A stretch of 64,000 bases of DNA from Balanoglossus misakiensis (taxonomy: Eukaryota; Animalia; Hemichordata). Within the stretch, counting starts at the first letter, position 1. Each line of letters opens with the position of its first letter. Positions 54,355 through 64,000 of the stretch are shown here, in pieces. The stretch lies in the NCBI GenBank assembly GCA_040954595.2, contig CM082589.2, positions 5,453,186 through 5,517,185 on the forward strand. Direction: 5' to 3'. Below the pieces are notes generated by a model. That model ran no database searches, was not told the origin of the DNA, and saw nothing but the letters and a program-made list of their open reading frames with translations. The position numbers and the translations under genes were made by a program.

Positions 54355-57300
54355 CCTCTATCTGTCTCTCTCTCTGTCTCTGTCTATCTGTCTGTGTATC
54401 TGTCTGTCTGTCTGTCTGTCTGGCTCTCTCTCTGTCTCTCTCTATCTATCTCTGTCTATGTCTGTCTGTCTGTCTGTCTGTATGTCTGTCCGTCTGTCTG
54501 TCTGTCTGTCTGTCTCTGTCTCTGTCTCTCTCTGTCTCTCTCTCTGTCTCTCTCTTTGTCTCTCTCTCTCTCTCTCTCTCTCTCTCTCTCTCTCTATCTA
54601 AAATCATCGAATAACGGTAGGCAGGGAAGGTAAGTTATGACATGCGAAATAAGTTGTTTGACACATTTCAACCCAAATAATATTATTTCAAAAAAGAATA
54701 TTTATGGTCTATATGATGAAGCTGTATGAAACTTCACGTATTTCTTAACTCACATATTTCTTAACTAACGTGAAGAATTTTGTGTTCATTCTTTTATACC
54801 TCTCTGCTACTCTTTCTCTCTGTCTGTCTGTCTGTCTGTCTCTCTGTCTCTGTCTCTGTCTGTCTCTCTCTCTCTCTCTCTCTCTCTCTCTCTCTCTCTC
54901 ACACTCTCTCTCTTTCCGAACGCATTTTATTATGACGGGAATGCAATAGATGGATGTAAGTCATCCTGCCATCGTTTGATATTTTTATCAAATTTCTTTG
55001 AAACATTAAAACTTACTCAGATGTCAATTTATAAACATTTATATGGTCGTTGATGTAACCGAGATAGAACATTTCACGTACTTTTAGAATTTCGTGAAGA
55101 ATGAGTTAATTATCCCGTCTAACTCGCTTTTCTCTGTCTCCCTATGTCTCTCCCTCTGTCTCACCGTCCCCCTTTCAACTCGGCGATTTTTACCATAATG
55201 GACTTCTAAACAGGAACGTGTAAGTCATGCCATTTGATTTCAATTGTTTGCCATATTTAAACTCCAACACGAGCTTTGTATATAATATGGTCTATGATGT
55301 AACTGGGATAGAACATTTCACATACTTTTAGAATTTCGTGAAGAATTAGATGATTATCCCGTCTAACTCGTTGCTTTTCTCTGTCTCCCTATGTCTCTGC
55401 CTCTGTCTCACCGTCCCCCTTTCAACTCGGCGATTTTTACCATAATGGACTTCTAACAGCTACCGGTAAGTCATGCCATTTAATTTCAATTGTTTGCCAT
55501 ATTTAAACTCCAACACGAGCTTTGTATATAATATGGTCTATGATGTAACTGGGATAGAACATTTCACATACTTTTAGAATTTCGTGAAGAATTAGTTGAT
55601 TATCCCGTCTAACTCGTTGCTTTTCTCTGTCTCCCTATGTCTCTGCCTCTGTCTCACCGTCCCCCTTTCAACTCGGGGATTTTTACCATAATGGACTTCT
55701 AACAGACACTCGTAAGTCATGCCATTTAATTTCAATTGTTTGCCATATTTAAACTCCAACACGAGCTTTGTATATAATATGGTCTATGACGTAACTGGGA
55801 TAGAAAATTTCACGTACTTTTAGAATTTCGTGAAGAATTAGTTGATTATCCCGTCTAACTCGTTGCTTTTCTCTGTCTCCCTATGTCTCTGCCTCTGTCT
55901 CACCGTCCCCCTTTCAACTCGGCGATTTTTACCATAATGGACTTCTAACAGACATCTGTAAGTCATGCCATTTAATTTCAATTGTTTGCCATATTTCAAC
56001 TCCAACACGAGCTTTGTATATAGCCTTAGATAACACTTGATAAAGTGTTAAAATATTTCATATATTTGTTGACTTCCGTGAATAATTAGTTTTGCACCGT
56101 TTCTAACTTGTCGCATCTCTGTCTGTCTGTCTGTCTCTCTCTCTCTCTCTCTCTCTTTATTTCTCTCTCTCTCTCTCTCTCTCTCTCTCTCTCTCTCTCT
56201 CTCTCTCTCTCTCTCTCTCTCTCTCTCTCTCTCTCTCTCCATCCCAAAACCAACACCAACACCATCATTATATTAATAGGACATTCTGGTAAGTTATACT
56301 TTGCGTTAACATTTAAAATGCAATAACGTCTTGTTAACATTAATTTTATCTAACAAGACACTAAGATATGAAATTTCACATATTTCAAGACGTACGTGAA
56401 CATTTTGTTGTTTCTTTTATCTTTCTTGCTCTGTCTGACTCTCTCTTTTTTTTCTCCGTCTGTCTGTCTGTTTGTCTATCCTGTCTGTCTGCCTGCCTCT
56501 GTCTCTCTCTCTTTATTTCTCTCTCTCTCTCTCTCTCTCTCTCTCTCTCTCTCTCTCTCTCTCTCTCTCTCTCTCTCTCTCTCTCTCTCTCTCTCTCTCT
56601 CTCTCTCTCTCTCCTCTCTCTCTCTCTCTCTCTCTCTCTCTCCCCCCAAACCAACACCATCATAATATTAATAGAAATCAGCGGTGGTAAGTTATGCTTT
56701 GCGAAATCATTTAAAATGCATTAACGTCTTGTTAACATTAATTTTATCTAACAAGACACTAAGATATGAAATTTCACATGTCTCTGCCTCTGTCTCACCG
56801 TCCCCATTTCAACTCGGCGATTTTTACTATAATGGACTCTAAACAGGAACATGTAAGTCATGCCATTTGATTTCAATTGTTTGCCATATTTAAACTCCAA
56901 CACGAGCTTTGTATATAATATGGTCTATGATATAACTGGGATAGAACATTTCACATATTTTTAGAATTTCGTGACGAATTTGTTGATTATCCCGTCTAAC
57001 TCGTTGCTTTTCTCTTTCTCCCTATGTCTCTGCCTGGACTTCTAACAGACATTGGTAAGTCATGCCATTTGATTTCAATTGTTTGCCATATTTAAACTCC
57101 ATCACGAGCTTTGTATATAATATGGTCTATGATGTAACTGGGATAGAACATTTCACATACTTTTAGAATTTCGTGAAGAATTAGATGATTATCCCGTCTA
57201 ACTCGTTGCTTTTCTCTGTCTCCCTATGTCTCTGCCTCTCTCTCTCTCTCTCTCTCTCTCTCTCTCTCTCTCTCTCTCTCTCTCTCTCTCTCTCTCTCTC

Positions 57301-57355
57301 TCTCTCTCTCTCTCTCTCTCTCTCTCTCTCTCTCTCTCTCTCTCTCTCTCTCTTT
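54355..57355. repeat. Clustered (CT)n/(CTGT)n microsatellite tracts, each upstream of a candidate micro-exon
   Basis: Tracts at ~54355-54600, 54800-54915, 56115-56240, 56430-56642 and 57235-57353. All are pyrimidine-rich on the + strand and each ends ~25-45 nt before an AG-(6/9/12 nt)-GTAA(G/A)T unit. Confidence 0.9.
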
Positions 57356-63300: not shown

Positions 63301-63884
63301 CTTTTCTCTGTCTCCCTATGTCTCTGCCTCTGTCTGACCGTCCCCCTTTCAACTCGGCGATTTTTACCATTATGGACTTCTAAACAGGAACATGTAAGTC
63401 ATGCCATTTGATTTCAATTGTTTGCCATATTTAAACTCCAACACGGGCTTTGTATATAATATGGTCTATGATGTAACTGGGATAGAACATTTCACATACT
63501 TTTAGAATTTCGTAAAGAATTAGTTGATTATCCCGTCTAACTCGTTGTTTTTCTCTGTCTCCCTATGTCTCTGCCTCTGTCTCACCGTCCCCCTTTCAAC
63601 TCGGCGATTTTTACTATAATGGACTTCTAACAGCCATATGTAAGTCATGCCATTTGATTTCTATTGTTTGCCATATTTAAACTCCAACACGGGCTTTGTA
63701 TATAATATGGTCTATATGTAACTGGGATAGAACATTTCACATACTTTTAGAATTTCGTGAAGAATTAGTTGATTATCCCGTCTAACTCGTTGCTTTTCTC
63801 TGTCTCCCTATGTCTCTGCCTCTGTCTCACCGTCCCCCTTTCAACTCGGCGATTTTTACTATAATGGACTTCTAACAGCCATAT
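54621..63884 (+). CDS. Putative micro-exon gene: 36 candidate exons of 6, 9 or 12 nt; continues past the window end
   Basis: Each segment lies between AG and GTAAGT (GTAAAT at 57396). Starts and sequences: 54621 GCAGGGAAG, 54950 ATGGAT, 55214 GAACGT, 55460 CTACCG, 55706 ACACTC, 55952 ACATCT, 56280 GACATTCTG, 56675 AAATCAGCGGTG, 56847 GAACAT, 57049 ACATTG, 57390 TTTGAG, 57753 GCAAAG, 57999 AAAATC, 58249 GAATTG, 58498 ACATCG, 58745 CCATAT, 58992/59239/59486 GAACAT, 59732/59977/60222/60467 CCATAT, 60713 GAACAT, 60958/61203 CCATAT, 61656/61902 GCAAAG, 62148 AAAATC, 62399/62648 GAATTG, 62894 ACATCT, 63141 CCATAT, 63388 GAACAT, 63634/63879 CCATAT. The phase-0 concatenation reads AGKMDERLPTLTSDILKSAVEHTLFEAKKIELTSPYEHEHEHPYPYPYPYEHPYPYAKAKKIELELTSPYEHPYPY; the other two frames hit TGA early. 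No transcript evidence is available. Confidence 0.6.
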
Positions 63885-64000
63885 GTAAGTCATGCCATTT
63901 GATTTCTATTGTTTGCCATATTTAAACTCCAACACGAGCTTTGTATATAATATGGTCTATGATGTAACTGGGATAGAACATTTCACATACTTTTAGAATT
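55040..64000 (+). repeat. Tandem array of a ~246-bp unit (240-nt intron-like part plus 6-nt variable core), 31 cores in the window, interrupted at ~56.0-56.8 kb, ~57.2-57.6 kb and 61449-61649
   Basis: Core spacing is 55214 to 55460 to 55706 to 55952, i.e. 246 bp; later units are 245-250 bp. Unit consensus: gtaagtcatgccatttgatttcaattgtttgccatatttaaactccaacacg...gaattagttgattatcccgtctaactcgttgcttttctctgtctccctatgtctctgcctctgtctcaccgtccccctttcaactcggcgatttttaccataatggacttctaacag. Confidence 0.97.
61449..61649 (+). mobile_element. 5'-truncated non-LTR retroelement (LINE/SINE 3' end) with a (TAA)n tail and a TAACAG target-site duplication
   Basis: A 201-bp insert absent from all other units. It ends in a hairpin (aatgcgct...agcgcatt) followed by about nine TAA repeats, and is flanked by taacag at 61443-61448 and 61650-61655. 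Confidence 0.75.

Follow-up and report, generated by a model that had tools for sequence, protein, structure and literature searches.

The two described kinds of gene that come closest to the locus considered here are both from flatworms. Micro-exon genes (MEGs) carry an N-terminal signal peptide and are described as apparently restricted to that group (PMC10526429, PMC4350168). One operational definition asks for at least seven exons, of which at least half are micro-exons shorter than 70 nt with a length divisible by 3, these occurring in runs of at least four (10.1101/2020.04.08.031872). For the SmPoMuc genes introns are given as more than 93% identical through concerted evolution, with differences between exons held by selection, and spider silk genes and SOWgp are cited alongside them for this pattern (PMC2576457). 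The present subject is a tandem array at the end of a 64,000-nt stretch of the genome of the acorn worm Balanoglossus misakiensis (assembly GCA_040954595.2, contig CM082589.2, positions 5,453,186 to 5,517,185 of the forward strand). That whole stretch is termed the window below, and all positions are counted within it. From 54621 onward the array presents 36 candidate exons of 6, 9 or 12 nt on the forward strand, and it is probably a spliced protein-coding micro-exon gene which, on the evidence of its sequence, grew by duplication of intron plus exon while its introns were homogenised.

Between 54630 and 63885 all 36 donors of the form GTAA(G/A)T have an AG 6, 9 or 12 nt upstream, and the cores so delimited are of 6 nt in 33 instances, 9 nt in two and 12 nt in one, every length being divisible by 3. 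There are 16 distinct sequences among them. Joined in order, as on full inclusion, they are free of stops in frame 0, whereas frames 1 and 2 are closed by three and eight stops respectively and were rejected as the coding frame. An independent count of donors and acceptors thus returned the 36 cassettes, 16 sequences, lengths in multiples of three and absence of phase-0 stops reported in the initial annotation, and its full-inclusion translation was likewise reproduced. The donor is GTAAGT in 35 of the 36 cassettes and the acceptor ends in AACAG in 31. The splice bracket claimed for the 31 main-type units is present, but its acceptor had been put too uniformly: CTAACAG is found in 23 of them, CTAAACAG in seven and TAATAACAG in one. 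The acceptor tally was also one short, there being a 37th at 61447-61448 which is split from its exon by a 207-bp insertion. In the exons starting at 54621 and 56675 a second, internal YAG would give 5 nt; in both, the in-frame length is that set by the first AG past a long zone devoid of AG. A gene on the opposite strand was considered and rejected, as in the array region that strand has no long open reading frame and only four strong donors.

Four families of flank can be distinguished, a main one (M) with a unit of 246 bp, and A, B and C. Exon 1 (54621-54629, 9 nt, family A), behind an AG-free zone of 300 nt, is probably 5' untranslated and supplies the A at -3 of the ATG, likely the start codon, with which exon 2 begins (54950-54955, 6 nt, family B). 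Exons 3 to 6 (55214-55957), of 6 nt each in main-type units, specify four different dipeptides, and exons 7 (56280-56288, 9 nt) and 8 (56675-56686, 12 nt) belong to family C. Exons 9 and 10 (56847-57054, 6 nt each) are main-type and stand behind chimeric or internally deleted introns of 160 and 196 nt which nevertheless retain AG-free zones of 81-82 nt, and exon 11 (57390-57395, 6 nt), again of family B, has the sole GTAAAT donor. Then come two blocks of 6-nt exons, the first (exons 12 to 26, 57753-61208) comprising fifteen main-type units and ending in runs of Glu-His and of Pro-Tyr, and the second (exons 27 to 36, 61656-63884) ten units in the order of the first with other run lengths, the array then running off the end of the window. 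Pro-Tyr is encoded by 10 exons in all and Glu-His by six. Over the columns that can be aligned the four families are only some 60-80% alike, with the bracket and the lengths of 6, 9 or 12 nt kept. The two family-B exons differ at three of six bases while their downstream flanks are 85% identical, and the two family-C exons differ in sequence, and in length by exactly one codon, while theirs are 86% identical. That the bracket and the rule of three have outlasted intron divergence and indels is not to be expected of a mutation hotspot in a satellite.

Is the array nonetheless just a satellite, whose splice-like motifs arose by chance and in which mutation has a local hotspot? Tandem Repeats Finder does call it as one, with a period of 245-246 bp and 95-96% matches. 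The distribution of the variation speaks otherwise. Diversity was counted in those 27 of the 36 units in which both flanks are more than 85% identical to a reference unit, the other nine being left out, and is 0.485 in the core as against 0.026 over 222 flank columns, a 19-fold difference, the most variable six-column window of the flanks reaching 0.133. Parsimony on a tree built from the flanks only assigns 25 steps to the six core columns and 43 to 232 flank columns, with none at acceptor positions -5 to -1 or donor positions +1 to +9. About one core step would be expected at the flank rate, and 20-25 are seen. Among 291 pairs of units with unlike cores the flank distance is 0.030 and the core distance 0.585. 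The earlier proposal that variation is concentrated in the interval between AG and GT therefore holds. A hotspot would need to have its edges exactly at AG and GT with one central base spared, and would have to turn up again in three diverged families while lengths change there in steps of 3; the plain-satellite explanation is barely credible, and an origin of the array's features by chance is very unlikely.

The character of the core changes is also informative. On a minimum spanning tree of the 11 distinct main cores 18 of 20 changes are non-synonymous, and base 3, a third codon position, is constant across all 31 main-type cores. Yet synonymous change per core site, at 1.3 from two changes only, exceeds the flank rate of 0.19, so the contrast between exon and intron likely stems from homogenisation of the introns and not from positive selection alone. 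Two matching exons of the two blocks, 58498-58503 and 62894-62899, are one synonymous base apart within practically identical flanks.

The anatomy of the putative introns was calibrated on a neighbouring laminin gene, of which 72 introns were modelled and 67, with junctions within two residues of a homologue, were kept. An AG-free zone of at least 80 nt precedes the acceptor in 35 of the 36 array cassettes (81-300 nt), in four of the 67 laminin introns, where the median is 35 nt, and in 1.2% of 1540 background YAGs; the lone array acceptor without one belongs to the unit struck by the insertion. Pyrimidines make up 0.82 of positions -90 to -41 in the array and 0.50 in laminin, while at -20 to -4 the fractions are 0.53 and 0.76, i.e. 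the tract is shifted upstream. The 35 of 36 GTAAGT donors compare with 21 of 67 in laminin. In complete main-type units a CTAAC motif, its five columns unchanged in 27 of 27, lies about 93 nt before the exon and from its match to the consensus would be the branch point. A typical main-type intron of 240 nt (55466-55705) thus runs from GTAAGT to the branch-point-like CTAAC at 55609-55613, followed by a pyrimidine tract and with 108 nt free of AG. All seven tracts of (CT)8 or longer in the window precede array acceptors and are on the sense strand, the opposite strand having none.

Among human exons, those with distant branch points and an AG exclusion zone are reported to be more often alternatively spliced (PMC1431707). 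Like the array they have branch point and pyrimidine tract far upstream with no AG between, though the human cases described there are single exons and in the array every tandem unit is so built. Human constitutive micro-exons are given as having strong splice sites and short introns, and alternative ones as having thymine-rich sequence more than 20 nt upstream (PMC4317164). The features seen here are a mixture of those of the two classes. UGC close to the acceptor is the signal of neural micro-exons of the SRRM4/eMIC type. It is present at the two family-B acceptors only and so is not a general feature of the array.

How did the array grow? The flank family changes in mid-intron, from which it follows that the unit copied was centred on the exon and took in the last part of one intron, an exon and the first part of the intron after it. 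Such units have been copied and shuffled with breakpoints in mid-intron. Runs of the same exon share a flank haplotype (25 core steps, whereas 1000 shuffles gave no fewer than 39), and a whole block of units, block 1, recurs about 4.4 kb downstream as block 2 with run lengths changed. In the four-gamete test 41 of 153 pairs of flank sites are incompatible, which points to exchange between introns, with recurrent mutation a possible partial explanation. Introner-like mobile introns would offer a different history, in which near-identical introns inserted serially into an old reading frame and the exons are pieces of an old protein, and unlike exons between near-identical introns would then call for no strong positive selection. 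That history is highly improbable, given that the flank to either side moves with its exon and that the family changes in mid-intron, that identical exons recur in runs with flank haplotypes of their own and that all 31 main-type cores have the same base 3; nor is there an evident mechanism for phase-0 insertion every two codons.

A short inverted motif in mid-intron (55070-55100 and equivalents) is found in all flank families and marks the joins of the chimeric introns. Either a recombination junction or the binding of a protein might account for it. Its folding was no better than that of shuffled sequence in six of six segments (z from -0.87 to 0.09) and among four pairs inspected for covariation there was no compensatory change.

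The 207-bp insertion (61449-61655), between the orphaned acceptor at 61447-61448 and the exon beyond, carries a (TAA)n tail, and 6 bp of the acceptor appear to have been duplicated as its target site; from tail and duplication it is probably the end of a retroelement, and no second copy is present in the window. Upstream of it the orphaned acceptor keeps its full set of signals, with an AG-free zone of 108 nt. This bears on a reading in which only the early exons are a real micro-exon gene, and blocks 1 and 2 are a minisatellite expansion, mostly skipped or decaying, in the manner of the amphioxus 'mirages', which often retain AG and GT signals without disturbing normal splicing (PMC3087553). 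The insertion does create a stop-bearing exon behind a strong acceptor, and six Pro-Tyr units are flank-identical at all variable sites and so are recent copies scarcely tested by selection. Mirages, however, copy one boundary and have no variable in-frame core between both signals, whereas block 1 by itself has six dipeptides within near-identical flanks, and the disrupted exon has an intact copy one unit downstream. Such an expansion is an unlikely account of the two blocks.

Upstream, the best-scoring donor between the laminin stop and the array is at 53876, matching eight of nine consensus positions. It would end a probable non-coding exon (53800-53875, 5' end undefined) on the forward strand, which in-frame stops just before the donor would make 5' untranslated, and which is presumed to be joined to the array. 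A weaker alternative donor at 53979 follows a phase-0 ATG at 53955. After the predicted splicing the first ATG is that of micro-exon 2, its context an A at -3 and a G at +4, and the residues that come next are polar. A search of 50350-54620 for an exon encoding a signal peptide yielded 14 phase-0 ATG-to-donor candidates with donor score of at least 6, none combining a hydrophobic leader with a consensus donor, which leaves room for an exon whose phase differs or whose donor is weak. Of the 73 residues from the exon 2 ATG, Glu and Pro account for 11 each, Tyr for 10 and His for 6, and the predicted product has a length-variable tail of Glu-His and Pro-Tyr.

By analogy such a product might give an intracellular protein an N-terminal arm of tunable length, disordered and able to bind a metal or a partner, a suggestion we hold to be rather doubtful. 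The model is the P exons of avian fast troponin T, a run of small exons encoding the His-Glu-rich repeats of a variable N-terminal region, there too of an intracellular protein; these are at most seven, are switched in developmentally as a group and belong to a known protein (PMC7581897), while the array has at least 36 exons with several types of dipeptide.

Must the cassettes be coding at all? They could be spliced into a long 5' untranslated region or a non-coding RNA, or the introns could themselves be the product, as in a host of small RNAs. In keeping with this the introns are much more uniform than the exons, and the window holds no signal peptide or domain to support a protein. Lengths divisible by 3 in four flank families, a single open frame and the avoidance by changes of a third codon position speak against it, and it is improbable. 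Its intronic form also finds no encouragement in an Rfam search of 52000-59000 (7001 bases), with no match at E up to 5, or in the folding of the array intron and unit, which is no better than shuffled sequence (z -0.94). The array as a host of structured or small intronic RNAs was rejected, there being no Rfam match, folding excess or covariation.

Several considerations nonetheless weigh against the spliced coding gene. Units are copies of one another and the independent sample is thereby reduced to some four flank families, and between some pairs of families the homology is not itself significant (z below 2). CT microsatellite, which contains no AG by nature, accounts for part of the AG-free zones in families A, B and C. 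Freedom of the cores from stops is in itself weak evidence, as the initial annotation had allowed (p about 0.17), although the 36 distinct codons it counted are in fact 36 codons of the 16 distinct exons, 27 of them distinct, and the constancy of base 3 is statistically modest (p 0.03 for that position, 0.16 for any position). Block 2 could be a duplicate from assembly. The order of the exons gives a helix no more amphipathic than 5000 shuffled orders do (p 0.55 with a window of 11, 0.59 with 14 and 0.22 with 18), and so there is no support from this for exon order mattering. Lastly, splicing at the acceptor at 61447 would reach an in-frame stop at codon 6, so no long product can be made unless that acceptor is passed over. 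Three cases offer themselves: routine skipping, a truncated allele, or decay of the 3' half of the array. Against these stand the pyrimidine tracts, the AG-free zones, the flank families, the amino-acid-changing divergence and the one open frame, and the proposal of phase-0 coding micro-exons derived by tandem duplication of intron plus exon is well supported by the sequence.

If the array is such a gene, then at least the first 73 residues of its protein would be encoded by exons that mostly hold two codons each. Each 240-nt intron would be removed as a unit through its perfect donor, with the branch point and pyrimidine tract, some 40-95 nt back from the acceptor, serving to keep splicing complexes off the 6-nt exon. 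Most exons would be included in order, and leaky skipping would stay in frame, with at least one acceptor having to be skipped for the long product. The sequence itself shows introns that stayed near-identical as exons diverged, almost only at amino-acid-changing positions. A bolder possibility, to which we incline less than to its contrary, is a combinatorial library with the resolution of a dipeptide, in which at least 35 interchangeable two-codon exons, which selection would have diversified between introns that stay identical, would be combined in many ways by skipping and newly arranged among alleles through unequal crossing-over. Were that so, MEG-like variation would have arisen independently in an animal that is no flatworm, and its use might be recognition in immunity or between gametes.

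Most of the window is filled by the laminin gene used for calibration, a complete-looking alpha 3/5 type on the forward strand (about 7961-50348) with about 73 exons and a median intron of 177 nt. A search with its first exon against 1.84 billion cluster representatives, in which eight matches were looked up and four clusters named, gave a best match from Glandiceps talaboti well clear of the rest. Identity with the laminin of that species is 66% over 3368 aligned residues, as against 47-52% for nine other full-length laminins. By this one gene the animal would probably be placed as another enteropneust hemichordate. The idea of the array being a 3' extension of this gene was dismissed since the laminin stop, near 50348, is upstream of the array. 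Between the two lies a near-perfect inverted repeat of 117 bp (51685-51801), with arms of 26 nt (100%) and 29 nt (90%), possibly a small transposon. At 5457-6266 on the reverse strand three exons seem to make up a gene for a small secreted prepropeptide. It would have a signal peptide, a cleavage-like site of basic residues and a short mature portion containing eight cysteines, and is reminiscent of peptides of the antimicrobial or venom type; two of the exons had no Pfam match. Coding-looking exons at 2886-3460 on the forward strand resemble those of a thioredoxin/DsbA-like protein, and one of them had no protein or Pfam match.

If spliced as predicted, the array is an animal coding region cut into two-codon pieces over at least 36 consecutive exons, a finer partition than in the MEG and SmPoMuc genes with which it is compared. 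Such a gene would escape repeat-masked annotation and short-read aligners alike. With its introns near-identical and in effect just six bases differing from unit to unit, it would be a natural test of how the spliceosome deals with long runs of micro-exons, and could show if identical introns force inclusion in order or random skipping; it also bears on how exons keep diverging while introns homogenise. Among the matches listed in a search at the level of titles and abstracts, with most subscription journals outside its coverage, there was no hemichordate gene of 6-nt or dipeptide exons. Genome annotations of acorn worms may already contain the gene.

Of the more distant comparisons, the amphioxus mirages share minisatellite-like copies with splice signals, an invertebrate deuterostome host and concerted evolution. 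They are copies of a single exon-intron boundary and apparently unspliced (PMC3087553), unlike the unit here with acceptor, diversified in-frame exon and donor; a mirage repeats one boundary of an exon of its host gene, whereas here each unit has both signals, and with laminin ending near 50348 the array does not lie within it. The bicycle and megacycle genes of aphids have many micro-exons of the same phase, 118 exons in megacycle, and internal duplication, but their phase is 2, they are putative salivary effectors and the available description mentions no homogenised array of introns (10.1101/2021.09.24.461719).

With MEGs, as their descriptions go, the array has in common long runs of symmetric exons divisible by 3, down to 6 nt, that can be skipped with the frame safe (PMC10526429, PMC4350168, 10.1101/2020.04.08.031872), together with raised non-synonymous change and a tendency to be missed by gene finders (PMC10526429, PMC4350168), and its predicted exons, 36 in succession with lengths of 6-12 nt that are always multiples of 3, are of the composition by which MEGs are operationally recognised. 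MEGs as reported have mostly 15-nt exons, 10-20 per gene, introns of up to 5 kb and documented skipping (PMC10526429, PMC4350168). Nearly all exons of the array are of 6 nt, its introns are near-identical tandem copies and its host is a free-living deuterostome; no signal peptide is seen for it within the window, and the neighbouring laminin is nearest to that of an acorn worm, Glandiceps talaboti, and not of a platyhelminth.

The closer architectural precedent is SmPoMuc, the parasite mucin multigene family of Schistosoma mansoni, to which the array is likened by architecture only. There too a small exon and its flanking intron are repeated in tandem, up to about 20 times, with microsatellites inside the repeats (PMC2576457). 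As in that family the tandem unit is an exon with halves of introns, evident here from the 246-bp period and the mid-intron switches of family, and the introns are more homogeneous than the exons with the repeats recombining (0.030 against 0.585; 41 of 153). The SmPoMuc exons described are of 27 nt in units of about 1 kb and of few types (r1, r1', r2 and r3; PMC2576457), whereas here exons of 6 nt in 246-bp units belong to 16 types within one gene. In its design the array gene works like a MEG and in its evolution like SmPoMuc, and it is a member of neither.

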